Shown here: one piece after another, positions 2,704 through 34,791 of the stretch
Position numbering within the stretch: the first letter of the stretch is position 1
How the letters are laid out: the number at the start of each line of letters is the position of its first letter
NCBI GenBank assembly: GCA_964535155.1
Contig: CAZHSR010000003.1
Coordinates: 1-38,274, forward strand
Direction of reading: 5' to 3'
From: an uncultured Candidatus Saccharibacteria bacterium
GTDB taxonomy: Bacteria > Patescibacteriota > WWE3 > UBA101185 > UBA10185
DNA: 38,274 nucleotides
Position numbers and translations under genes: made by a program
The notes under the pieces: model-generated
Told to the model about the DNA's origin: nothing
What the model saw: the letters and a program-made list of their open reading frames with translations, nothing else
Database searches by the model: none

Positions 2704-4321
2704 ATACTCTCCAATAATTTAATCCGTTTATTTTCATTGTAAAATCGAGGTCAAACTGGTCATTGAGTTCATCAGGCACTTTTTCATTTGGACCTAATAC
2801 AACAATATCATAATTGGAAGGTCCAAATTCGCGGATGTCAAAAATGTGAGAGGATTTGTAGATTCTTGACATGGGCTTTGTGTCATAAAAGCCTAATTTG
2901 GGGGATTCTGTGGATTCCTCATAGGTTCCATATTTGGAAAGAATTTGGTTTTTTAGGTTGGGAATTCCTATACCGAAAGGCTTTTGAGCCACAATATAAT
3001 GGGCATTTTCTGGGGAGCCAACAAGGGGGGTAAAATATGTAAATTGATAAGGATGAAATGCAAAATTTAAAGATAATAGAGCCATAGTAGAGAGAATTAA
3101 AAAGGGTTTTTGGTATTTTTGAGGAATTGTTTTTTCATAACCAATGAAGCTAAAAAGACAAAGGAGGGGAAAAATGGGGATTAAGTAACGATCTATTTTT
3201 TTGGAAGATATTGTCATAGTTGCCATGTAACCTAAGTAGAAAATGGTAAGGATTATCCTTAAGGCCATGGGGTTTTTGCCTTTGATGGGGAGCAAAGAAT
3301 TAAATCTGCTAAGGATTATCCTTGGGAGATCTCGGCTTTTTTCAGCAGTTAGGGCAAAAACCCCCAAGTGCCTAAGGATAATCCTTGTAAAAAGTAGAAG
3401 CCCTATAAATAAAATCGGGGAAGTTTTTAGAAAAATTAAAACAGGATAAAAAGTTAAACCCGGATCAATGGTCTCTTGGCCAAAGTAAATTTGCTCATGC
3501 CCCTTGCGAATCCCAATTCTTTCAGCCTCAGTAAAAATTTTTGTTATTGTATCAATAGGAGCCACCCATGTTGCAGGAAAGAAAACAAAAACCGCCAGAA
3601 AAAACCCCATCAGGAAAAAGAAAATTTGGCGCAAAAGTTCCTTCGGTTGGTTAAAGTAACAAAAAACTAAAAAGGCCAATATAAAGGGCAAACCTCCAAT
3701 TGAGATACTTTTAGTCAAAAATGAAAATGCCAAGAAAACGCCAGAAGCAAAAACATACCACCTTGAAAATTTTTCATTAGGAAAAGCCGAAATATAAGCC
3801 AAAACCAGCGAAATCAGCAAAAAAAGGCTCAACAGAACATCCATGTGAAGCAAGCGAGAATTCCCAATAAAAAAAGGCTCCAAACTAAAAAACCCAACCA
3901 ACAAAACAGCCTTTTTTAAATCAAAGAGCTTCTTAAAGAGCCAAATCAAACCAAGAGAAAGCATCAACTGCGCAAAAACAACAGCATATTTTGCAACCGT
4001 ATGCATCAATATAAAATTTTCTTGATTATAAACCCGCAAAGAAGGCTCAATTTGTCGCACAATCTCTATAGCTACGCCCATGATCCACATTAAAGTCACT
4101 CCAGGATGATAATACTGATAAGTCCTTTCCCATTGATGAGCCTTTAAACCGTCAATAAACTGCTCCGATCTATAATGCCAATTTACTGCATCAGGATTTA
4201 TTGAATCTTGTCCTAAATAGGGAAGGCGCGTTAACAGAAAAAGTGCAACAAAAAGTGCAACCAAAAACCAAGAAGAGTTTATTAAACGATTAAAAAGACT
4301 AGTCGCTTTTTCCAAGAGCAT
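2684..4321 (-). CDS. GT-C fold membrane glycosyltransferase (ArnT/PMT-like family) carrying palindrome cluster A in frame
   Basis: The track ORF is 2684-4381. I prefer the ATG at 4321 (MLLEKATSLFN...), just before TM1. Paralogue motifs are shared with the 1-1175 gene. The segment RIILRHLGVFALTAEKSRDLPRIILSRFNSLLPIKGKNPMALRIIL is encoded by repeat cluster A. Confidence 0.7.
   Translation of the reverse strand: MLLEKATSLFNRLINSSWFLVALFVALFLLTRLPYLGQDSINPDAVNWHYRSEQFIDGLKAHQWERTYQYYHPGVTLMWIMGVAIEIVRQIEPSLRVYNQENFILMHTVAKYAVVFAQLMLSLGLIWLFKKLFDLKKAVLLVGFFSLEPFFIGNSRLLHMDVLLSLFLLISLVLAYISAFPNEKFSRWYVFASGVFLAFSFLTKSISIGGLPFILAFLVFCYFNQPKELLRQIFFFLMGFFLAVFVFFPATWVAPIDTITKIFTEAERIGIRKGHEQIYFGQETIDPGLTFYPVLIFLKTSPILFIGLLLFTRIILRHLGVFALTAEKSRDLPRIILSRFNSLLPIKGKNPMALRIILTIFYLGYMATMTISSKKIDRYLIPIFPLLCLFSFIGYEKTIPQKYQKPFLILSTMALLSLNFAFHPYQFTYFTPLVGSPENAHYIVAQKPFGIGIPNLKNQILSKYGTYEESTESPKLGFYDTKPMSRIYKSSHIFDIREFGPSNYDIVVLGPNEKVPDELNDQFDLDFTMKINGLNYWRVYVKNRL
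3248..3386. repeat. Palindrome cluster A: 3 perfect copies of AAGGATWATCCTT with a 63-bp period, inside a CDS
   Basis: Copies at 3248-3260, 3311-3323 and 3374-3386, separated by two 50-nt spacers. Spacer ends next to the outer copies are inverted repeats of each other (3261-3281 aaggccatggggtttttgcct versus 3351-3373 agggcaaaaacccccaagtgcct). Confidence 0.9.
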
Positions 4322-5300
4322 AAAGTACCCCTCCGATGAGGCTAACCAATAATCTGGAAAAGTGATACAAAATGGAGGCACTTAAAGCCATGGAAGCTGA
4401 AACTCCGACCATGCCAAGAAAGCTCATATATAAGGCATCTTGCACGCCAAATCCGTTGAGGGAAGGGATAAAAAATCCTGCAAAAGTTATGACTGGTAAA
4501 ACGAAGAGGGCAAATGTAAAGGGCACTTCTAGACCAAGGGCTAAGAAAACAAAGTATTGGGGCAAAATGGAAACGGCTTGAATTAGGAAAGAGGTCAGAA
4601 AAGCAATGAATAAAGCTTTTTTTGCGTCTTTATAAACTAGGAGGGAGTCACGAATTTTTCTGAAGAAACCAATTCTTTTTGCGAGTAAATTTAAAGACAA
4701 GAATCCAATTATTGCGGCAATCCAAAATCCTGAGAAAAGGGAAAATTTAAATAAAAAGACCCATAAAGAGTTGGCCTGAATTTCTGGGGGCAAAATTCCT
4801 ACCCAAAAGTCCATTGTTCTAATTAAACCAAAGTAGGAAATAAGAACTAGAGAAGCCATTCCTGTAAAACGCTCCATAAAAGTTGAGGAAAATCCAACTG
4901 CGTTATTTTTTATCTTGCGACCAAGCTGGTACATTTTGTAAACATCTCCACCAACACTTGTAGGCATAAAATTGTTGAAAAAAGATCCAATAAAGTAGAG
5001 ATTAATTAAGTATTTTGTGGAAACTTCTTCGGCATCTTCGGAAAGTAAAAGCATTTTCCAGCGTACGCCACCTATAAAATAATGAATGATGATAAAAATT
5101 GGGACGAAAATGGCGTATCTATAATCTAAAAGGCGAATATTTTCTATGAGTTCTGCGGTGTCAACACGAGTGAAAATTATTAATAACAAAATGGCGCTGG
5201 TGCCTAGTTTTAGGGCCATCTTTTTCCAAGATTTGTTCTTGGTTGTAGTAGTAGTCTCTAGTGTTTTTTCCTGCTCATTCATAACAAAAGAATTATACAC
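4299..5300 (-). CDS. UPF0104 / lysyl-phosphatidylglycerol-synthase-TM-like (flippase-like) membrane protein
   Basis: 333 aa with about 8 TM segments. The motif FMPTSVGGDVYK resembles the conserved GGD/GGE loop of this family. Such genes commonly accompany GT2/GT-C genes. The start could instead be M7 (5282). Confidence 0.55.
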   Translation of the reverse strand: MYNSFVMNEQEKTLETTTTTKNKSWKKMALKLGTSAILLLIIFTRVDTAELIENIRLLDYRYAIFVPIFIIIHYFIGGVRWKMLLLSEDAEEVSTKYLINLYFIGSFFNNFMPTSVGGDVYKMYQLGRKIKNNAVGFSSTFMERFTGMASLVLISYFGLIRTMDFWVGILPPEIQANSLWVFLFKFSLFSGFWIAAIIGFLSLNLLAKRIGFFRKIRDSLLVYKDAKKALFIAFLTSFLIQAVSILPQYFVFLALGLEVPFTFALFVLPVITFAGFFIPSLNGFGVQDALYMSFLGMVGVSASMALSASILYHFSRLLVSLIGGVLYALGKSD

Positions 5301-6072
5301 TAGTAATAAAGTATCTGTTGTACTCGTCCCCTTTTGTGTTAGTGGTGTAGGATTTTAGGATTTCTAGGTGGGCGTCTTGGCAAAGCTTTGTGGCTTCTTC
5401 GGTGGAGATGTAGTGACAATAGCGAATTGCTTCGACGCCTTTTGACCAGGTTAGTAAGTAATCGTGTTCTTCTAATTCTTTTAATTCGGAAAGGTTGATA
5501 TTTTGGCTTTCCCAAGGAGCAACATTTTTGGGAAAATTTGGGGCTTTTACAAATTCCCATGTGGAGAAGACTATTTTTCCTTGAGGGGCTAACAAGGCTT
5601 TAAGGATTTTTAACAGTTCTAATCTCTTTTCATACGAAGGGATGTGATGCAGGACTCCAAAAAGGGCTATAAGGTTAAATTTTTCCTTTGTGAAAGGTTC
5701 TTGCTCGAAGGGGTTTTTTGGATCTGAGCTTAAAATATCAATGGATTTGAAATCGGAATTGGGAAGGTTTTTTTGAGCTTTTTGGAGTAGAAAATCATCA
5801 AAGTCTATGCCAAAGTAATTGGCTTGATTAAAATTAGGAATTTTTTCCTTTAAGAAGAGCCCAAATCTTCCGTTTCCGCAGCCGACATCTAAAACTTTGG
5901 GGGTTTCTTTTAGAGCCTCGTTTGAGATTCCCTCTGAAGCTGTGTCTAGAAAAGGCAAGACGCCGTTCCACCCTTCCCAATAGTATTCTCTAGTGGAATC
6001 AAAGTGAGGTGCAACTCTGGAATAAAATTCTTTATTTATATCGTTAAGGGATTTAATAAGACTTGCATTCAT
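5293..6072 (-). CDS. Class I SAM-dependent methyltransferase, Trm9-like (candidate tRNA mcm5U34 methyltransferase)
   Basis: SAM motif I VLDVGCGNGRFG. N-terminal FYSRVAPHFDSTREYYW matches the Trm9 signature (yeast Trm9 VYNEIAPHFSQTRYKPW, recalled from memory). Also FGVLHHIPSYEKRLELL and the C-terminal IRYCHY (Trm9 YRYYHLY). Divergent from elp3. Confidence 0.7.
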   Translation of the reverse strand: MNASLIKSLNDINKEFYSRVAPHFDSTREYYWEGWNGVLPFLDTASEGISNEALKETPKVLDVGCGNGRFGLFLKEKIPNFNQANYFGIDFDDFLLQKAQKNLPNSDFKSIDILSSDPKNPFEQEPFTKEKFNLIALFGVLHHIPSYEKRLELLKILKALLAPQGKIVFSTWEFVKAPNFPKNVAPWESQNINLSELKELEEHDYLLTWSKGVEAIRYCHYISTEEATKLCQDAHLEILKSYTTNTKGDEYNRYFITSV

Positions 6073-6078
6073 AGTGTC

Positions 6079-6084
6079 AGTATA
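6079..6084 (-). promoter_or_regulatory. -10 box TATACT placed for a leaderless transcript of the Trm9-like gene
   Basis: The minus strand reads TATACT-gacact-ATG, with 6 nt between the hexamer and the start at 6072. No Shine-Dalgarno sequence. Confidence 0.45.
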
Positions 6085-6096
6085 ACCTATATTCTG

Positions 6097-6239
6097 AAGG
6101 ATAATCCTTGGAGAAATCTGGAGTTCAGCTTGTCATTAAAACTAAAACGCATAGTTGCCCAAAGGATTATCCTTAACGAAACTCAAGGTTTATCCTGTAA
6201 ATAAAGCTCAAAGTCCCATTTTGTTAAAGGATTATCCTT
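6097..6239. repeat. Palindrome cluster B: 3 perfect copies with a 65-bp period in the Trm9-like/elp3 divergent intergenic region
   Basis: Copies at 6097-6109, 6162-6174 and 6227-6239, with 52-nt spacers. A degenerate copy aaggtttatcctg lies at 6185-6197. Confidence 0.9.
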
Positions 6240-6247
6240 GGTATAAT
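6239..6247 (+). promoter_or_regulatory. Extended -10 (TGgTATAAT) of elp3
   Basis: TGGTATAAT lies 9 nt upstream of the ATG at 6257. Its TG is formed by the last T of palindrome copy B3 and the G that follows it. Confidence 0.45.
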
Positions 6248-6256
6248 AGACAAAGT

Positions 6257-7942
6257 ATGTATAAAACTGAAAAATATGCTTTTGACCCTTCTAAATACGA
6301 AGAGGAACTAATTGAAATCTTCAAAGCAGTCGACCAAATAAAAACCCCCGAATGGAATGGGGCTGTATTTAGATCCATTCAAGCAAAATATCCTAAAGAT
6401 AAAAGTAAAATGTTTAGTAAAAATGACTTAATAAAAGGCTATAGATACATCTTATCCAAAGGAAAAATCAAAGGAGGAATCGCTGGTAAAGCTACTGAGT
6501 CAAAAGACCTAATCCAAAAAATCCGTATGAAACCCATTAGAACCCTTTCTGGCGTGACACCAGTTACAGTCCTAACAAAGCCATGGGCGTGTCCGGGTAA
6601 ATGCATTTATTGCCCAAATGAGCCAAACATGCCAAAAAGCTATATTCAAAGCGAACCAGGGGCACAAAGAGCTGCTTTTTTGGACTTTGATCCATATATG
6701 CAGACAGCAAAAAGAATCCAGTCACTACAGCATATTGGGCATAACACAGAAAAGGTTGAGTTAATAGTCTTGGGAGGATCTTGGTCGGTATATCCAGAAA
6801 ATTACAAAAGATGGTTTATAAAACGGTGTTTTGAGGCAATGAATAATCCAGATGAGGAAAGTCCAAATTTAGAAGAAGCGGAAACTTCTTGGGAAGATCT
6901 AGCAAAACAACAAAAAATAAATGAGACAGCAGAACATAAATGCGTGGGACTTTCTTTGGAAACGCGCCCAGATTTAATTACAGAACAAGAGGTCGTTAAA
7001 CTTAGAAGATATGGGGCAACCAAAATTCAAATTGGGATACAAAGCTTAGACGATGAGATTTTGGCAAAAAATTTACGAGGGCACACTGCTTCTACAACAA
7101 AAAAAGCCTTTGAACTTTTGAGACTCTCCGGATTTAAAATTCATGCCCATTGGATGGTAAATTTATTCGGTGCTACTCCAGAAGGCGAAATTGAGGATTT
7201 TAAAAAGCTTTGGTCATCCGATTATTGCCCAGATGAGCTAAAAATTTACCCAACTTCGGTTATTGCAAACACAAAATTAGAGGAATTGTATAAATCTGGG
7301 GAGTATGTCCCCTACTCTACTGAAAAGCTCGTGGAGATTGTGGCAAAGCTAAAAACTATGGTTCCACCTTTTTGCAGGATAACAAGAGTAATTCGCGACA
7401 TCCCTTCACAAGAGATTGTAGCCGGAAGTAAAGTTTCTAATTTGAGGCAAGATGTTAAAAGGTATCTGGAAGAAATTGGCGAAGAGTGTGAATGCATTAG
7501 GTGCCGAGAAATTAGGCAAAATGAAGTGGAAGAAAGCGATTTGATTTTAAAAGTGGACGAATATAAAACTTCGGTTTCTAATGAGTATTTTTTATCTTTT
7601 GTAACGGAAGAAAATAAAATTGCGGGATTCTTGAGGCTTTCTGTGCCATTTGCTGAAAAAAGAGAAGGGCATTTTATTGAGGAGTTAAAAGATTCAGCAA
7701 TAATTAGAGAAGTGCATGTTTATGGGAGCGTTGTTGGTATAGGGAAAGAAGAGGAAGGGAAGGCACAACATTTTGGATTGGGAAAAAAGCTGATTGAAAA
7801 GGCGGAAGAAATTACAAGGGAAAATGGGATAGAAAATCTGGCTGTTATTTCAGCTATTGGAACAAGAGAATATTACAGGAAGAGGGGTTTTGATATAGGG
7901 GATGGGGATTTGTACATGCACAAACAGAAGCTCAACGACTAG
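6257..7942 (+). CDS. elp3: Elp3-family radical SAM / GNAT acetyltransferase (tRNA U34 cm5 modification enzyme)
   Basis: Radical SAM cluster motif CPGKCIYCP. C-terminal GNAT block IREVHVYG...QHFGLGKKLIEKAEEI...ISAIGTREYYRKRGF is typical of Elp3. The track ORF starts at TTG 6155; I prefer ATG 6257 (MYKTEKY...), downstream of the -10 box. Confidence 0.85.
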   Translation: MYKTEKYAFDPSKYEEELIEIFKAVDQIKTPEWNGAVFRSIQAKYPKDKSKMFSKNDLIKGYRYILSKGKIKGGIAGKATESKDLIQKIRMKPIRTLSGVTPVTVLTKPWACPGKCIYCPNEPNMPKSYIQSEPGAQRAAFLDFDPYMQTAKRIQSLQHIGHNTEKVELIVLGGSWSVYPENYKRWFIKRCFEAMNNPDEESPNLEEAETSWEDLAKQQKINETAEHKCVGLSLETRPDLITEQEVVKLRRYGATKIQIGIQSLDDEILAKNLRGHTASTTKKAFELLRLSGFKIHAHWMVNLFGATPEGEIEDFKKLWSSDYCPDELKIYPTSVIANTKLEELYKSGEYVPYSTEKLVEIVAKLKTMVPPFCRITRVIRDIPSQEIVAGSKVSNLRQDVKRYLEEIGEECECIRCREIRQNEVEESDLILKVDEYKTSVSNEYFLSFVTEENKIAGFLRLSVPFAEKREGHFIEELKDSAIIREVHVYGSVVGIGKEEEGKAQHFGLGKKLIEKAEEITRENGIENLAVISAIGTREYYRKRGFDIGDGDLYMHKQKLND

Positions 7943-7943
7943 A

Positions 7944-8342
7944 CTAAAGAAACGAATCCAAAGAGCGATCATCAGTAACATTGGTTGTAGGTAGAGCTGC
8001 TCCCGCATCAGATATAAATTCTCGAGCTACTTCTTCTGGAACACCTTTCTGCTCACAATCGAGAATGTATCTAGCTAGGTCGTAACCATACCTTTGTACT
8101 TCTCCTAGTGAATCAGGTTCAATAGTATCTCCGCTCTTGAGAGCATCCAAATACACTCGGTACCCCTCCGTATGCATGGGCTTAACCTGAGAATCAGCCT
8201 CCGAAGAATGTATAAATTGTACACTCTGTTCCTCAAGCGCCCTAAAGGCTAAATATCTCCTAGCCAAATCATACCCACCAGAGGATAGGCTTTCATCATT
8301 AACTAATCTTCCATAAAGTTCTGCTTTTGACTTTTCATCCAT
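7944..8342 (-). CDS. Hypothetical small acidic protein with an internal GYDLAR-x-YL duplication
   Basis: 132 aa. Contains GGYDLARRYLAF and YGYDLARYILDC. Strong SD (TAGGAGtaatgtATG), unlike its leaderless neighbours. Local GC is about 42-45% by hand count on two 60-nt lines, against 18-38% for neighbouring lines. Confidence 0.5.
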   Translation of the reverse strand: MDEKSKAELYGRLVNDESLSSGGYDLARRYLAFRALEEQSVQFIHSSEADSQVKPMHTEGYRVYLDALKSGDTIEPDSLGEVQRYGYDLARYILDCEQKGVPEEVAREFISDAGAALPTTNVTDDRSLDSFL

Positions 8343-14440: not shown

Positions 14441-15706
14441 TCATTGTATCAAAAGCTGTTCTAATTCTTTTATGTTCTTGTCTATGTCAAACATTGCCAA
14501 AGCTTTTTGTCGCAAAATTTCACAAGGATAATCCTTGGCCGTTTTGGCACTTTGCTCTGTTGCCACAGGCAAATCCCCCATTTTTATGAAGGATAATCCT
14601 TGAAGGATTGCATCAGCCAATGCCTTTGGATCCCTTTGTGGCACTATCCAACCAGTTTTTTCGTCAACTAATTCAAGGATACTCCCTGCATCTGTTGCAA
14701 CTATTGGCTTTGCCAACATTGCTGCTTCTATTATAAAAGTGGGGATACCATCGGCGTCACCAGAATCTAGGTTTATATTTGACTGCACAACCAAATCACA
14801 GGCCTTTAAATAAGAGACAACTTCATTAAAAGGCACCCCTTCGCCTCCGCCATGTATAAAAACATTATCTTGTAGCCCTAAAGAGGCTATCTGTTGAGTA
14901 AGCTCTTGATACAAAGGACCTGGCCCTGCAATATGCAGTTCAAAATCCAAACCGTTATCCTTTAAAATTTTTGCCGCCTCAATCAAATACTTTTGCCCCT
15001 TCTTTTCTACCAAGCGAGCGCCACCATTAAACAAAAAAGGTCTTGTTCCCCTTTTCGCAGGAGGGACAGAATCAAAGGACGCCACAGAATCTATTCCATG
15101 GTATTGCAATAAAACATTTTCAGGAGCTTCAACACCAGAACGCCTAATGCAATCTTCATAAGCAAAGCGATTACAAATGGAAATGAATTTTGCGGTTGCT
15201 ACTTTGGAAGCAAAAAATTCACCTTCTACCATTACATCCTTTGCATGTGCCGAAATACTATATGGAATTTCCAGCAACTTTGACCCTATCATTGCCATTG
15301 TAGAAGGCCACGACATGAAATTTGCATGAATATGATCAGGAGAAAGTTGTTTAAATAAGTAAGCATATCCAACCGATTTGGCAAAAATAACCAATTTTTT
15401 GGCTAAAGTTTCTTCCTTTGTGGAAAGTAAAAATCTAAAAGTTTTCCCTAAAACCGAAGGTTTCCTGCTCAAAAAATAAATCCAAGCTCTAATTGCCGTT
15501 ACAAAATCCAATCTCTGATAAACAACATGAGTTGCAACATTATCAAATAATCTTCCACTAGCCTTTTCCAAAGAGAAAACAGTTATTTCTAAATTTCCTA
15601 AATCTACGAGCTTAGAAATTTCCCTCTGAATAAAAGTTTCAGTTAAACGCGGAAACTCAGGAACAAAAATAAGAATTTTCTTTTTTTTGTCCTGATTTTT
15701 CTGCAT
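14441..15706 (-). CDS. GT4 family glycosyltransferase carrying palindrome cluster C in frame near its C-terminus
   Basis: 421 aa. DGIPTFIIEAAMLAKPIVATD block. The C-terminal segment QGLSFIKMGDLPVATEQSAKTAKDYPC is encoded by the repeat cluster. Confidence 0.8.
   Translation of the reverse strand: MQKNQDKKKKILIFVPEFPRLTETFIQREISKLVDLGNLEITVFSLEKASGRLFDNVATHVVYQRLDFVTAIRAWIYFLSRKPSVLGKTFRFLLSTKEETLAKKLVIFAKSVGYAYLFKQLSPDHIHANFMSWPSTMAMIGSKLLEIPYSISAHAKDVMVEGEFFASKVATAKFISICNRFAYEDCIRRSGVEAPENVLLQYHGIDSVASFDSVPPAKRGTRPFLFNGGARLVEKKGQKYLIEAAKILKDNGLDFELHIAGPGPLYQELTQQIASLGLQDNVFIHGGGEGVPFNEVVSYLKACDLVVQSNINLDSGDADGIPTFIIEAAMLAKPIVATDAGSILELVDEKTGWIVPQRDPKALADAILQGLSFIKMGDLPVATEQSAKTAKDYPCEILRQKALAMFDIDKNIKELEQLLIQ
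14443..14451 (-). promoter_or_regulatory. Extended -10 (TGaTACAAT) placed for a leaderless start of the GT4 gene at 14436
   Basis: The minus strand reads TGATACAAT-gaatcc-ATG. It overlaps the 3' end of the upstream GT4 gene. Confidence 0.4.
14524..14601. repeat. Palindrome cluster C: 2 perfect copies 65 bp apart, inside a CDS
   Basis: AAGGATAATCCTT at 14524-14536 and 14589-14601, with a 52-nt spacer. Total length 78 bp = 26 codons. Confidence 0.9.
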
Positions 15707-17845: not shown

Positions 17846-18954
17846 ACTATTCTACTATAAAAAAAGAAATTCCATATTAGGCCAAGTGCAACTCCTATGA
17901 TGAAGGCAAAATTGGCTACTAATTGGGAATCGCCTAATAAGTCTAGTGTGAGGGGAATTAAAATGCTGCTTCTAAAATAGATGGGGACATAGGAAATTAA
18001 GTAGTATAAAGGGGCTTTTTTTAAAATTTTTATAGGGTCGGTGATTTTTTGTTTGTTAAAAGACCAAAAGTTATTAAAAATGTAGGTAACATTTATTGCA
18101 ATAAAGCCAGAAAGTGCACTGGATCTTGATTCTGATAAAGAGGTTGACCATAGGAAGATATTAAATAAGCCAATGTCAGTAAAAAATCCCAAGAAACCAA
18201 CTAACCCAAATTTTATAAAACTTTCTAACTCTTTTAACCTTAATGTAATAACAACTCTTAAAGAATCCATCATGTTATTTTTTTCCATTTTAGAATCGCC
18301 TCGATCCCTTAATCCAAATTCTATGGGGACTTCTTTTATGCCTGCCCCCAATCGATGCATTTTGTGCAAAAGGTCTATTTTATAGGCAAATCCTTGGGAA
18401 AGAATGCTGTCTAAATCAAGTTTGTCCACAAATCCTTTTACTCTTGAGGCTTTAAAACCAGAAGTAAAGTCATTGACATTAAATATGCCTAAAACGAGTT
18501 TAGAAAAGATGTTTCCACCTACGCTCAGAAACTTTCGTATAAATGTCCATTCTTTGGGGATACTCCCCCCCTTTACAAATCTAGAACCAATGGCGTAATC
18601 AGCACCATTTTCTATTGCTTGTAAAAGTCTAGGGACATCATTAGGGTCATGCTGAAAATCTGCGTCCATTTCTACTATTACATCCGCGTGCATCTCTTCC
18701 ATGGCGTGTTTGAAGCCATAAATATAAGCAGCACCAAGGCCTCGTTTTTCAGGCTCTAATAACAAATGCACGCTTTTATATTGATCAGAGAAATTTTGTA
18801 CAACTTCGCCCGTTCCATCGGGGGAGTTGCCGTCAACAACTAAAATATCAAATTCACCTGAAAACTCAGTCTCTAAAATAGGCACTAATACAGGAATAAG
18901 TTTTTCAATATTTTCTCTTTCATTATATGTAGGAACAACAATTACTGCCTTCAT
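17833..18954 (-). CDS. GT2 polyprenol-phosphate glycosyltransferase (Ppm1/DPM1-like) fused to a C-terminal GtrA-like 4-TM domain
   Basis: 373 aa. VVPTYNERENI, VVDGNSPDGT and EMDADFQHDP. The C-terminal FIKFGLVGFLGFFTDIGLFNIF region is GtrA-like. Confidence 0.8.
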   Translation of the reverse strand: MKAVIVVPTYNERENIEKLIPVLVPILETEFSGEFDILVVDGNSPDGTGEVVQNFSDQYKSVHLLLEPEKRGLGAAYIYGFKHAMEEMHADVIVEMDADFQHDPNDVPRLLQAIENGADYAIGSRFVKGGSIPKEWTFIRKFLSVGGNIFSKLVLGIFNVNDFTSGFKASRVKGFVDKLDLDSILSQGFAYKIDLLHKMHRLGAGIKEVPIEFGLRDRGDSKMEKNNMMDSLRVVITLRLKELESFIKFGLVGFLGFFTDIGLFNIFLWSTSLSESRSSALSGFIAINVTYIFNNFWSFNKQKITDPIKILKKAPLYYLISYVPIYFRSSILIPLTLDLLGDSQLVANFAFIIGVALGLIWNFFFYSRIVWKK

Positions 18955-26615: not shown

Positions 26616-26632
26616 ACATGAAACTTTTGTAA

Positions 26633-26638
26633 TATAAT
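26633..26638 (+). promoter_or_regulatory. -10 box TATAAT placed for a leaderless start at 26646
   Basis: TATAAT-aaaagta-ATG (N7). Confidence 0.4.
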
Positions 26639-26645
26639 AAAAGTA

Positions 26646-27847: not shown

Positions 27848-28831
27848 CTAGTACCAAACGAAATTATTCTCCAACCAGTTAAGAATTGCCTTTGTTTCGG
27901 GGAATCTAGCCTCACTTCCCATTAGAATTATTAACAAATCCTTGTCTTCATCTGCATATTCATAAATTAAAACTTCCCTTGCCTGACTTGTTGTACCAGT
28001 TTTAATTCCTACGGATCCTGAAATTTGGGTTAAAAGCTGATTTGTTGAGTAAATTGTTCTTGGGATATTACCTGTTTCTAGGTTATAAAAAGGCTTGGCA
28101 TAAATTTCTTTAATTAAGGCATTTGCCTTTGCTCTTTGTGCCAAAATGTAAAGATCCTTTGCTGTAGACTTATGAGAATAATCAAAGCTGTCAAAGCCAA
28201 CGGGATTGGTAAAAATTGTATTTACCATGCCAAATTGAAGGGCTTTTTGGTTCATCAGTTGAACAAAAGTCTCTTCGGTTGTGGCGGTGTTAGCTAAAAT
28301 ACATGCAGCATCATTTGAAGAGGAAATCAGGGTCGCATGCAGAAGGTCTTTTACTGAAATTTCTTCGGCGAGGGTCAGGTCCAGGCGATTTCCTTCTACA
28401 TTTAGACACTTTTCTGGCGTATTAGATATGGGCAAGATTTCATCTAGGGAGTAAAGATCTAAACTCACTAATGCTGTCATAAGCTTTGTTGTTGAAGCTG
28501 GTGCCAAAATTGTGTCGGGATTCTTTTGATAAAGGATTCTTGTTGTGTTTAGATCTGCAACCAAAACCGATTTTGCTGATAAAGTAGGGAATTTTGCTTT
28601 TGTGGCGTTTGTGTTGGCGGCTCCTACTGCATGGGGGATTTTTGTCATACTTCCCAGAGTCACGGGATATAGTGTGAGGGATAATCCCTCAACCGAAAAG
28701 AGCTTCTCCCTATTGAGAAGGGTAAAAACCACAATTGCCACAAGGATTATCCTTCGCTCAATCCACACCAAGACTTTCAGTAAGGCATTAAGTGAAATTT
28801 CGTTAAGGATTATCCCTCGGACTATAGGCAT
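27848..28831 (-). CDS. D-alanyl-D-alanine carboxypeptidase (peptidase S11 / PBP5-like); the N-terminal ~55 aa are encoded by palindrome cluster D
   Basis: SxxK (ASTTKLMT), SxN (SSSNDAA) and KTG (IKTGTT) motifs. The ATG at 28831 is 3 nt after the aspS stop. The only hydrophobic anchor (RRIILVAIVVFTLL) lies within the repeat cluster. An alternative start at M62 (28648) would leave no export signal. Confidence 0.75.
   Translation of the reverse strand: MPIVRGIILNEISLNALLKVLVWIERRIILVAIVVFTLLNREKLFSVEGLSLTLYPVTLGSMTKIPHAVGAANTNATKAKFPTLSAKSVLVADLNTTRILYQKNPDTILAPASTTKLMTALVSLDLYSLDEILPISNTPEKCLNVEGNRLDLTLAEEISVKDLLHATLISSSNDAACILANTATTEETFVQLMNQKALQFGMVNTIFTNPVGFDSFDYSHKSTAKDLYILAQRAKANALIKEIYAKPFYNLETGNIPRTIYSTNQLLTQISGSVGIKTGTTSQAREVLIYEYADEDKDLLIILMGSEARFPETKAILNWLENNFVWY
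28677..28817. repeat. Palindrome cluster D: 3 copies (one perfect, two C/G variants) with periods of 65 and 63 bp
   Basis: AGGGATAATCCCT at 28677-28689, AAGGATTATCCTT at 28742-28754 and AAGGATTATCCCT at 28805-28817. The spacer module 28719-28741 agggtaaaaaccacaattgccac resembles 3351-3373 in cluster A. Confidence 0.85.
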
Positions 28832-28834
28832 TAA

Positions 28835-30124
28835 TTATGGCTTTAATCTTTTTACATCCCTTGGCAAATAGGTTGCTTCCTTTATTGTAGGCAAATCCAA
28901 GATTTTCATGACAATTCTACCTGGGCCAATTCCTGCCCCTCCATGAGGCGGACAGCCATATTTAAAGAACTCCAAATAGTCATGAATTGACTCCAAGGAT
29001 AACCCTTTGCCTTCTGCCTGAGCTTTTAACACATCCAACCGATGCTCCCTTTGCGCTCCAGTTGTAATTTCCACACCTTTATAAAGCAAATCAAAGCTCT
29101 TGGTAATTTCCGGCCTATCTTCATATCGCATATGATAAAAAGGTCGCGCGTCTTTATACCAATTTGTGACAAAGACAAAGTCATGCCCAGTTTCCTCTTT
29201 TATAATCTCGCAAATTCTTCGCTCCTCTTCCGGGCTTATGTCATGCTCTTTTTCGCTAGGCACTCCAGCTTGAGCCAGCTTTTCCTTTATTTCCACCATC
29301 TCCAACCGAGGGAATGGGCGCCCAGGCACTTCCAGATGGGGCAAAACAGTGGATTTGAGCTGTTCAAATCCAGATACAATGGCAGATTCCAAAACATCCA
29401 TAACTTCTTCGGGTCCATTTATGTAAGAAATCTCAAAGTCCCATCCAGTAAATTCGGTTAAATGCCTAGTTGTAAACGAAGGTTCTGCACGAAATACAGG
29501 TCCCGTCATAAAGACCTTTTCCAACCCAGAAGCCATAGCCATTTGCTTGTAAAACTGAGGAGATTGTGCCAAATAGGCCTTTGTCTCAAAATAACCGACC
29601 TCAAAAACATCAGCGCCAGACTCACTTGGGGCACTCATAAACGAAGGAGTATACAGCTGAACAAAATCGTTTTCCAAAAAGTATTTGCGGAAACCCTCTT
29701 CCAATTGAGTCCAAACCTTAAAAATTTGCTGCTTTTCCGGTCGACGCAAATCCAGCCAACGAAAATCCAATCGCTTTGAAACATCAACTTCCCCCCCACT
29801 TTTCTCAAAAACCACAGGAATTGCAAGTTCTGGAGCTGCTAAAGATAAAATTTCCATATCAGATACGGCAATTTCTACGCCATTAGGAGCTTGAGCTTCT
29901 TCTTTTACCAAGCCTTCCAGGGAGATAACCGATTCCAAAGTTAAATCTGCAATTTTTGGAAATGCCAAAGAGTCCGCACGAATTACAGCTTGAATTGTGC
30001 CTGTAATATCGCGAAGGTTTAAAAATTTAATCTTTCCTTGATCGCGAATACTTTCCACAAAACCAGATACTTGAGCAGTTTTGCCAATTTGAGATTTAAT
30101 TTGGCTTATTTTTGTTCTTTCCAT
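28835..30124 (-). CDS. aspS: Aspartate--tRNA ligase, archaeal/type-2 form (possibly non-discriminating)
   Basis: 429 aa. N-terminal OB anticodon-binding domain, class II motif 2 GPVFRAEPS, motif 3 GGAGIGPGR, and a C-terminal PRDVKRLKP as in archaeal-type AspRS. Confidence 0.85.
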   Translation of the reverse strand: MERTKISQIKSQIGKTAQVSGFVESIRDQGKIKFLNLRDITGTIQAVIRADSLAFPKIADLTLESVISLEGLVKEEAQAPNGVEIAVSDMEILSLAAPELAIPVVFEKSGGEVDVSKRLDFRWLDLRRPEKQQIFKVWTQLEEGFRKYFLENDFVQLYTPSFMSAPSESGADVFEVGYFETKAYLAQSPQFYKQMAMASGLEKVFMTGPVFRAEPSFTTRHLTEFTGWDFEISYINGPEEVMDVLESAIVSGFEQLKSTVLPHLEVPGRPFPRLEMVEIKEKLAQAGVPSEKEHDISPEEERRICEIIKEETGHDFVFVTNWYKDARPFYHMRYEDRPEITKSFDLLYKGVEITTGAQREHRLDVLKAQAEGKGLSLESIHDYLEFFKYGCPPHGGAGIGPGRIVMKILDLPTIKEATYLPRDVKRLKP

Positions 30125-30430: not shown

Positions 30431-30506
30431 GGGGCGGTAGCCAAGGTGGTCACGGCACCGGTCTGAAAAACCGGCGATGTGGGTTCGACTCCCACCCTCC
30501 CCACCA
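30431..30506 (+). tRNA. tRNA-Phe (anticodon GAA), CCA encoded
   Basis: Hand-folded cloverleaf of 76 nt. Acceptor stem GGGGCGG/CCTCCCC has one C5:U68 mismatch. U8, A14, G18G19 and A21 are present. Anticodon arm CCGGT-CTGAAAA-ACCGG. 4-nt variable loop. T arm GTGGG-TTCGACT-CCCAC. Discriminator A followed by CCA. Confidence 0.85.
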
Positions 30507-30588
30507 TAGAAATATACACCCGCTTTATTCTTTCATATCAGCAATAGATTTTTCGATTTTAGATATAGTGGGTAATAAATAGTTCGAC

Positions 30589-30597
30589 TGATATAAT
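30589..30597 (+). promoter_or_regulatory. Extended -10 (TGaTATAAT), leaderless geometry
   Basis: TGATATAAT-ataaat-ATG(30604). Confidence 0.45.
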
Positions 30598-30603
30598 ATA
30601 AAT

Positions 30604-31690: not shown

Positions 31691-31725
31691 TATCTTTCGC
31701 AAGAATCCACCATAAAAAACTGTGC

Positions 31726-31734
31726 TGTTATAAT
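31726..31734 (+). promoter_or_regulatory. Extended -10 (TGtTATAAT), leaderless geometry
   Basis: TGTTATAAT-atccac-ATG(31741). Confidence 0.45.
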
Positions 31735-31740
31735 ATCCAC

Positions 31741-32328: not shown

Positions 32329-32381
32329 GGAAAAAAACTCCAGCAAGCCCAAGTATTTGTTCGCTTTTTAAGACTTATAAT

Positions 32382-32390
32382 TGATATAAT
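32382..32390 (+). promoter_or_regulatory. Extended -10 (TGaTATAAT), leaderless geometry
   Basis: TGATATAAT-atatct-ATG(32397). Confidence 0.45.
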
Positions 32391-32396
32391 ATATCT

Positions 32397-34029: not shown

Positions 34030-34732
34030 ATGAGGGCGTGTGCAATAAATCGATGATTTCTTTTTGGGTTAAATAGCGAAATTCACCTTGCTTTAGATCC
34101 CCTAAACCTAAATTTCCAATTTGAACTCGCTTTAACTCAACTACGCGTAATCCAACCGCCTTGCACATTTCCCTTATTTGACGCTTTAAACCTTGATGCA
34201 AAATTATCTCAAACTCTTGCTCTCCTAAAGGCTTAATTTCCACAGGCAAAGTCTTTTCTCCATAAATTTCCACACCTTGTGCCATCTCATCCAGTTGCTT
34301 TTGACTAAACTTTTCTCTTGTCTTAACTACATACTTTTTTGGAACATGATACCTTGGATGAGTTAATTTTAAAGCAAAATCTCCATCATTTGTTAAAAGC
34401 AAAAGCCCAGTGGAATTGTAATCTAGCCTTCCAACGGGATAAACTTTTTCTGGAACTTTTATAAAGTCCAAAACAGTTTTGCGACCCCATTCATCTTCTG
34501 TTGTACTTAAAACATTTAATGGCTTATAAAATGCAATGTATCTAAAATTTAAATTTTCTGGTTGAACTTTTTTTCCTTCTACTAAAACTGCATTATTCCC
34601 AGGGTCTATTCTAACTACATCTTCAACTACGGCCCCATTTACAGAAACTAAACCTGCTTCAATCAGGTCTTTTGCTTTTCTTCTGGAGCTAATTCCGTTT
34701 TTTGATAGGAAGGAGTCTAGGCGAATTAACAT
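34019..34732 (-). CDS. Pseudouridine synthase, RsuA/RluB family
   Basis: N-terminal S4 domain (RLDSFLSKNGISSRRKAKDLIEAGLVSVNG) and catalytic motif GRLDYNSTGLLLLTNDG. Confidence 0.85.
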   Translation of the reverse strand: MLIRLDSFLSKNGISSRRKAKDLIEAGLVSVNGAVVEDVVRIDPGNNAVLVEGKKVQPENLNFRYIAFYKPLNVLSTTEDEWGRKTVLDFIKVPEKVYPVGRLDYNSTGLLLLTNDGDFALKLTHPRYHVPKKYVVKTREKFSQKQLDEMAQGVEIYGEKTLPVEIKPLGEQEFEIILHQGLKRQIREMCKAVGLRVVELKRVQIGNLGLGDLKQGEFRYLTQKEIIDLLHTPSFGI

Positions 34733-34791
34733 AATATGTATTATACAGTAAATACACGGTGTGGTTGTGCAAACACAAGGGATTAATTATA

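Follow-up and report, generated by a model that had tools for sequence, protein, structure and literature searches.

A candidate family of phased palindrome arrays in WWE3 bacteria, viewed from the methyltransferase–elp3 gap

Positions 1 to 38,274 of contig CAZHSR010000003.1, from an uncultured bacterium of the WWE3 lineage, are referred to here as the window (38,274 nucleotides, nt). This stretch carries three perfect copies of a 13-bp palindrome, AAGGAT-N-ATCCTT, between two divergent genes, one for a class I S-adenosylmethionine (SAM)-dependent methyltransferase and the other for Elp3. An earlier note on this DNA had read the triplet, cluster B, as an operator array dedicated to that gene pair. 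We instead favor, at about even chances, the reading that cluster B belongs to a dispersed, WWE3-specific family of phased palindrome arrays (WWE3, or Katanobacteria, is a candidate division in the candidate phyla radiation, CPR), each array being a selected platform to which a putative dimeric protein, structural or global in its role, would bind. Literature searches for the 13-mer as a binding site and for WWE3 palindromes retrieved no paper on either, the matches being primers; the family appears undescribed.

Palindromes, phasing and spacers

The copies of cluster B (B1, B2 and B3; Table 1) follow one another at an exact 65-bp period, have W as central base (AAGGAT-W-ATCCTT), and all fall within the 184-bp gap that runs from the methyltransferase start codon (CAT at 6070-6072, minus strand) to the elp3 ATG (6257). 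We place the elp3 start at this ATG, not at the TTG at 6155, given 99% coverage against homologues of 545-554 amino acids (aa) and a conserved N-terminus, MYKTEKY. The copies of cluster B are noncoding; on this point, as on the number, perfection and period of the copies, the sequence and copy count bear out the earlier note. Across the whole window there are 11 palindrome copies with at most one mismatch, as compared to 0.23 expected, and none of 100 shuffles reached 11, which rules out a chance origin. Every one of the 11 belongs to an array. Perfect copies number 9 in the window, the loci of a distant WWE3 relative (WJKK01, described below) have 15 copies, and no other 12/13-bp palindrome recurs in either.

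Three of the four window arrays (A, C and D) fall within coding sequence. Each copy of array A is read as RIIL, and the array lies in a 32-aa insertion or variable loop of a PMT_2-like protein. One of its two spacers is an inverted copy of the other, producing a 139-nt imperfect inverted repeat centered on the middle palindrome and contained within an intact open reading frame (ORF); as DNA, the repeat folds into a long hairpin with imperfect pairing (-33.5 kcal/mol, z -6.6). The two copies of array C are read in different frames (KDYP and GLS). Array D extends over sequence coding for the N-terminus of a D-Ala-D-Ala carboxypeptidase and for the C-terminus of the aspS product, and its one long spacing, 190 bp, is about 3 x 63 bp. 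Taken together, the coding copies read as RIIL (5), GLS (3) and KDYP (1), which covers all three frames; thus, the palindrome is kept at the DNA level. We also considered a tandem or peptide repeat and rejected it: Tandem Repeats Finder reports no 63-65-bp tandem array, and the palindrome occurs in three frames as well as in noncoding DNA.

Phasing is strict wherever we found the arrays. All 20 neighboring intervals in 12 arrays measure 63, 64 or 65 bp, which is about six helical turns, so that all copies of an array lie on the same face of the helix. Spacer length is correspondingly constant (50-52 bp), and an array of three copies, the modal number (exactly three in 8 of the 12), spans about 143 bp. 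Array ends are sharp; the sole isolated copy seen, in locus L001, has one mismatch and no partner at an in-phase distance. Variant copies (AGGGATAATCCCT, AAGGACNGTCCTT and single T>C changes) are symmetric or wobble-compatible.

The spacers themselves tell of local growth followed by divergence. Spacers from different arrays do not align, their scores lying at background (mean -7.4, sd 5.4), whereas the spacer pairs of B and of a second array, L6, score +6 and +11, with 27/52 and 31/52 identical positions (hand count on aligned spacer sequences). This likeness within arrays, together with the inverted spacers of array A, indicates that arrays grow by direct or inverted local duplication of a unit of ~64 bp and then diverge. 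A spacer identity of 52-60% means that about 0.6-0.8 substitutions have accrued at each neutral site after the duplication, yet the palindromes still match at 12/12 positions, with 0 changes in 36 palindrome positions, and the spacing has held within ±1 bp. Zero changes in 36 positions is not neutral, and we take this as strong evidence of purifying selection on both the sites and their phasing.

One short element recurs in the spacers. An unconstrained expectation-maximization motif search on 19 spacers recovered motif M (AARGSAAAAnCC, A-tract-like) with a score of 199.6, as compared to 166-180 in 12 shuffles; for 14 of the 19 sites the distance to the next palindrome falls in one 3-nt range, as compared to 3-6 sites in the shuffles. 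Between the end of the motif and one flanking palindrome there are about 10-12 nt, and the motif center is about 22-23 bp from the nearer palindrome and about 42 bp, or four turns, from the other. The motif takes either orientation and flips within arrays. In cluster B, the motif copy between B2 and B3 is overlapped by AAGGTTTATCCTG (6185-6197), a palindrome-like sequence with 2 mismatches.

Table 1. Coordinates of the palindromes, arrays, promoter elements and flanking genes in the window
Feature	Positions	Strand	Remarks
Array A	3248-3386	.	3 perfect palindromes (3248, 3311, 3374; period 63 bp) in the PMT_2-like glycosyltransferase gene
Class I SAM-dependent methyltransferase gene	5293-6072	-	divergent pairing with elp3 kept in relatives
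Methyltransferase -10 box TATACT	6079-6084	-	6 nt before ATG (6072-6070)
Palindrome B1 AAGGATAATCCTT	6097-6109	.	over about -25 to -37 of the methyltransferase promoter
Motif M copy CAAGCTGAACTC (minus-strand reading)	6121-6132	-	weak; spacer B1-B2; consensus AARGSAAAAnCC
Palindrome B2 AAGGATTATCCTT	6162-6174	.	65 bp from B1
Motif M copy ACAGGATAAACC (minus-strand reading)	6187-6198	-	spacer B2-B3
Palindrome B3 AAGGATTATCCTT	6227-6239	.	65 bp from B2; last T is the T of the elp3 extended -10 box
Extended -10 box of elp3 TGGTATAAT	6239-6247	+	TGnTATAAT; 9 nt before ATG 6257; leaderless-type promoter
elp3	6257-7942	+	radical SAM, Radical_SAM_C and GNAT domains; TIGR01211 507 bits vs cutoff 350
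Array C	14524-14601	.	2 perfect palindromes (14524, 14589; period 65 bp) in the GT1 glycosyltransferase gene
Array D	28677-29007	.	copies at 28677 (AGGGATAATCCCT), 28742, 28805 and 28995; spacings 65, 63 and 190 bp

Distribution and turnover in WWE3 DNA

We scanned 185,579 species-representative genomes for two palindrome copies 46-56 nt apart. Among the matches listed there is one genome, the WWE3 metagenome-assembled genome WJKK01000001.1 (864 kb), which has at least six loci, dispersed over the contig and each with two or three copies at 63-65 bp. This relative is a distant one, with an Elp3 64% identical to that of the window and a GC content of 41-44% as compared to 36.5%. Among the matches listed from a metagenome scan are two CPR-like contigs with the same palindrome and spacing. 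We set aside a GC-rich (61%) marine contig (L009, 1280-1383) as unrelated, its 63-bp direct repeat happening to contain the 13-mer. The genes that flank arrays in WJKK01 and the metagenome contigs share no theme (lgt/rpiB, rnhB, rseP/rpsU, recG/rsmD, gatB/polA, rplJ and pyk), and the pyk array, in L008, occupies the gap between the divergent promoters of pyk and a Zn-ribbon gene. Array density is uneven: the 38 kb of the window contain 4, the 864 kb of WJKK01 at least 6, and about 150 kb from other relatives none.

Gene order at elp3 (PMT_2-like genes, LPG_synthase_TM, methyltransferase, elp3, Polysacc_synt, DUF2079 and glycosyltransferase genes) is kept in six relatives, represented by loci L010/L011, L015, L012, L013, L019 and L020. 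None of these loci has a palindrome with at most one mismatch, where an N run leaves about 75 nt readable upstream of elp3 in L013; recurrence of the arrangement upstream of elp3 in related genomes, a prospect raised in the earlier note, is thus negative in all six. The closest relative, L010 (Elp3 77% identical), has 14 nt between its two -10 boxes as compared to 157 nt in the window, and the 143 extra bp equal the span of the array (6097-6239). Judged from this comparison, cluster B is extra DNA splitting two promoters that were ancestrally back to back.

Other arrays give a similar picture. The loop that holds array A is 32 aa longer than in the L010 protein; array C sits in a variable linker of the GT1 gene, with extra linker there; and the gatB-polA array of WJKK01 occupies a gap of 210 bp that measures 23-101 bp, and holds no palindrome, in three relatives (PolA 74-85% identical). 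L010 has decayed look-alikes of the palindrome at two of the window's array positions, AAGGCATTATCTT beside the elp3 -10 box where B3 stands (7441-7454), and AAGGAATTTGTTG and AAAGAATTTATTG in the GT1 gene at both array C copies (18213-18480), which suggests sites that lost constraint in the L010 lineage.

A second palindrome family, RRGGAC-W-GTCCYY (core GGACWGTCC), differs from that of the arrays through T>C and A>G changes placed symmetrically. It occurs in L001 (2215-2243 and 2378-2406), L003 (1055-1083), L007 (1054-1066) and L008 (2950-2962). In WJKK01 it forms pairs 16 bp apart that make terminator-like hairpins just past a stop codon, and in two metagenome contigs single copies adjoin the main arrays; it is not present in the window.

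Promoter overlap and competing explanations

The promoters that cluster B separates are recognizable in related genomes. TGnTATAAT, 6-9 nt before the elp3 start codon, is kept in the six relatives (the box reads TTGATATAAT in L010 and L015, CTGATATAAT in L019, TTGATAAAAT in L020 and CTGATAGAAT in L013), and the methyltransferase arrangement of TATACT, 6 nt and ATG is also present in L010; on this conservation, both -10 boxes are very likely real. They also conform to a wider pattern, in that 14 of 34 window genes have a -10 box (at least 5/6 match to TATAAT) whose end is 5-11 nt ahead of the start codon, as compared to 4.3% of random positions. Because these hexamers stand directly upstream of start codons, the first genes are expected to be transcribed as leaderless or near-leaderless mRNAs. 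Leaderless-type promoters are found upstream of most first genes (e.g. 26630-26645, 30588-30603, 31725-31740, 32381-32396 and 34733-34750), and Shine-Dalgarno-like sequences in the window stand chiefly ahead of internal operon genes. As the earlier note had described, B3 abuts the elp3 extended -10 box and supplies its T (T6239), and B1 lies 12 nt upstream of the methyltransferase TATACT (6084 to 6079). A bound protein would therefore cover about -15 to -27 of the elp3 promoter as well as the methyltransferase positions under B1. Both -10 boxes fit the leaderless rule, and the placement that the note had proposed for B1 and B3, which is repressor-like, is supported.

What that note made of the placement fares less well. 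It had a local transcription factor acting on B1-B3 to co-regulate the methyltransferase and elp3, which would tie the palindrome to tRNA wobble modification. The overlap of B1 and B3 with the core regions of two well-supported leaderless promoters is real, the L008 array likewise occupies a divergent promoter gap, and 6-1-6 palindromic sites are typical of dimeric regulators. Dedicated control of a tRNA-modification gene pair, however, is an unlikely account of arrays of which three in four lie in coding DNA in the window, which elsewhere adjoin unrelated genes, and whose sites are not confined to a coherent regulon. No regulator gene lies nearby among the window ORFs scanned, and six relatives (L013 being partly readable) keep the elp3 -10 box without the palindrome; the gene pair and its promoters work without the array in those genomes. 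The label “Trm9-like” that the note gave to the methyltransferase is without support, in that comparison with PDB and NCBIfam produced no match identifying Trm9; we treat the protein as a generic class I SAM enzyme. An explanation through nucleic-acid structure, with hairpins, cruciforms or pairing between copies in RNA or single-stranded DNA acting as terminators, processing sites or recombination structures, could draw on the stable hairpin of array A, on the symmetric or wobble-compatible variant copies, and on the resemblance of the related GGACWGTCC pairs to terminator hairpins. We consider it very unlikely, since no hairpin can form from a stem of 6 bp and a loop of 1 nt, the folding of arrays other than A is no better than expected apart from trivial palindrome-palindrome pairing (z of -0.65 to -2.8, and -4.6 in L003 owing to that pairing), and no array has an Rfam match at the gathering threshold or at E<=1. 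Arrays also occur in both orientations to transcription and inside ORFs, and a structural role would leave the strict 63-65-bp spacing with unconstrained spacers unexplained. Short palindromic repeats regularly interspaced with unique spacers of constant length (50-52 bp) might also be taken for a degenerate or miniature array of the clustered regularly interspaced short palindromic repeat (CRISPR) kind. That reading is effectively refuted by the in-frame coding location of arrays translated inside intact ORFs and by the length of the repeat, just 13 bp in 2-4 copies per array as compared to about 23-55 bp in CRISPR arrays, which are noncoding and come with a leader; the spacers, too, carry a positioned motif whose orientation flips within arrays, and the window has no cas genes or domains.

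The main rival of the phased-platform reading is a selfish or mobile repeat, comparable to miniature inverted-repeat transposable elements (MITEs), to repetitive extragenic palindromes and bacterial interspersed mosaic elements (REP/BIME), or to Rickettsia palindromic elements (RPEs). The palindromes would then be sites for a transposase, for an enzyme of the REP-associated tyrosine transposase (RAYT) type or for a recombinase, which spreads units of ~64 bp that the host tolerates and does not need. This explains the insertion-like distribution and the turnover. As with MITEs and RPEs, the arrays are present as insertions relative to orthologues and are tolerated in frame; they are lineage-specific extra DNA at cluster B (the 143 bp relative to L010), in the PMT_2-like insert, in the GT1 linker and in the gatB-polA gap, their positions turn over fast, the palindromes at both array ends resemble terminal inverted repeats, and a second palindrome family inhabits the same genomes. 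We nevertheless find it doubtful. Arrays within a genome have no full-length likeness and so give no sign of recent transposition, and perfect palindromes amid randomized spacers are not what element-level selection predicts for individual old copies. No target-site duplication is seen, the flanks of array B (ending in ATTCTG on one side and beginning with GGTATAAT on the other) and those of the other arrays lacking a direct repeat; nor is there a transposase in the window or a RAYT in the WWE3 pieces scanned (8-22 kb each). REP sequences are usually confined to one species, but the 13-mer and its spacing occur in genomes whose Elp3 proteins are just 64% identical, and a scan of viral contigs was empty. 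Two specific forms of this idea were rejected, a full-length mobile element because spacers of different arrays fail to align, and a phage origin because the viral contig scan gave nothing.

By analogy, the arrays are closest in kind to dispersed protein-binding palindromes (REP/BIME, matS and KorB sites), while differing from all of them in site length, in obligatory six-turn triplets and in their tolerance of coding DNA. REP/BIME sequences of enterobacteria are imperfect palindromes of ~35 bp, in a range of 20-40 bp for the REP/BIME (REPIN) class, strictly extragenic, with conserved linker motifs and ties to RAYT transposases. Like the WWE3 arrays they are dispersed short palindromes, often in clusters of fixed spacing, with no relation to the function of neighboring genes; host proteins bind them, and the IHF site between the palindromes of BIME-1 can be likened to the placement of motif M. 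The WWE3 arrays, in contrast, have a perfect 13-mer, spacers unconserved save for motif M, a location mostly in genes (in the window) and no RAYT seen. matS, the site of MatP in the Escherichia coli Ter macrodomain, is likewise 13 bp with a free central base, is scattered regardless of gene function, may lie in genes and has a structural role. It differs from the WWE3 palindrome in sequence (GTGACRNYGTCAC) and in occurring as single sites and not as phased triplets, and MatP is confined to some gamma-proteobacteria; for comparison, the WJKK01 arrays are dispersed, and the window has a dif-like site (1 mismatch; see below). The OB operators of KorB in plasmid RK2 are 13-bp 6-1-6 palindromes found at promoters, far from promoters or inside genes, and in KorB/ParB one protein combines structural and repressive roles; KorB OB and ParB-parS are nevertheless single sites without the six-turn phasing of WWE3. 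We found no canonical parS (16-bp, of TGTTNCACGTGAAACA type, a site near the origin; at most 2 mismatches) in about 180 kb of WWE3 DNA, its sequence is unrelated to the palindrome, and no ParB-like gene is linked to the arrays. RPEs share with the WWE3 arrays a presence both in intergenic DNA and as in-frame insertions at permissive protein loops, but their copies are homologous over the whole length, whereas different arrays have nothing in common beyond the 13-mers and a short motif. Cluster B also resembles the operators of looping repressors and of three-site activators such as NorR, which place several identical palindromes in helical phase over divergent core promoters; those classical multi-operators, however, are kept within a regulon and conserved with it, whereas orthologous promoters lack the WWE3 sites, which do occur in coding DNA. 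The central 13 bp of the E. coli Fur box, AATGATAATCATT, match the WWE3 palindrome at 11/13 positions, a candidate resemblance; the neighboring genes are not metal-related.

In the phased-platform reading that we favor, each palindrome would bind a dimer of one conserved site-specific protein, and six-turn phasing along with the bend-prone A-tract would let the dimers touch through wrapped or looped DNA, forming a compact particle of three dimers. Binding would be cooperative and require two sites or more, which would account for the near absence of solitary copies. The role may be genome-wide and tolerant of position (chromosome organization, anchoring, global silencing or insulation), in which case arrays would accumulate where extra DNA is tolerated, in intergenic gaps and variable protein loops. 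Each array would have arisen from a unit of ~64 bp duplicated locally, in direct or inverted form, after which the spacers drifted and selection held the palindromes and their spacing, a history partly shown by the spacer comparisons. Having inserted between two leaderless promoters, the cluster B array should when occupied occlude both, B3 acting in the elp3 spacer and extended -10 box and B1 at the -35 region of the methyltransferase, and the bound complex probably represses both promoters. Because six relatives run the same promoters without an array, such occlusion is best seen as a local side effect, a by-product of the landing site and not the family's reason to exist. A bolder form of the platform reading, which we offer tentatively as a possibility, would have a WWE3 chromosomal system in which a conserved protein sits as three dimers on ~143 bp (six-turn palindromes plus positioned A-tract), in nucleosome-sized positioned particles that organize, anchor or insulate the chromosome and can be planted anywhere, including inside genes.

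Several points weigh against the platform. No candidate gene for the binding protein recurs beside arrays, whether in the array neighborhoods or among the window ORFs; the window ORFs scanned have no sequence-specific DNA-binding domain other than HU, and the binder may be encoded elsewhere. Fast positional turnover is equally expected of a selfish repeat. The uneven array density is not obviously predicted by a core housekeeping function. Geometry alone suggests that the DNA is wrapped or looped, that the A-tract plays a role and that the dimers assemble in threes, and the units in hand number about 20, which is a lower bound.

Neighboring features and implications for CPR chromosomes

Some further features of the window and its counterparts deserve mention. 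Downstream of elp3, a conserved acidic ORF of 132 aa (7944-8342, minus strand) has no Pfam or NCBIfam match, and a 134-aa ORF without a Pfam match stands at the corresponding position in L010 and L011. WJKK01 (L012, 8975-11659) lacks the methyltransferase that elsewhere pairs with elp3, and in L013 (7893-8264) this protein is cut to 123 aa beside the N run; the gene pair is not universal in WWE3. The sole RNA gene detected in the window, tRNA-Phe (GAA) at 30431-30506, sits in a 480-bp gap after aspS. A dif-like sequence, ATAATACATATTATGTTAA, lies at 34726-34744 on the minus strand (in extended form about 34716-34744), with 1 mismatch to the XerCD dif core pattern; it overlaps the -10 box and start codon of a pseudouridine-synthase-like gene, and could be a mark of the replication terminus or a chance AT-rich promoter palindrome. 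GC skew on the top strand of the window is +0.04 to +0.18 to the left of about 8 kb and negative to the right, an atypical switch that occurs although minus-strand genes stand to either side of it. Across the syntenic regions of L010, L012 and L013, skew stays for the most part below or near zero, rising at most locally around elp3. In the WJKK01 pieces fetched, skew follows gene strand and does not place the arrays relative to origin or terminus.

CPR bacteria are uncultured, with tiny genomes and few recognizable regulators, and their chromosome organization and regulation are almost unstudied. A perfect 13-bp palindrome phased strictly at 63-65 bp, most often in triplets and accompanied by an A-tract at a set position, makes up a strongly selected signal common to distant WWE3 genomes. 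For annotation, the lesson is one of caution, in that such arrays are not to be taken for local operators. Where promoters are leaderless, a protein bound next to the -10 box would also sit on the translation start region. Tolerated even inside genes, the signal gives a testable handle on how CPR chromosomes are organized.

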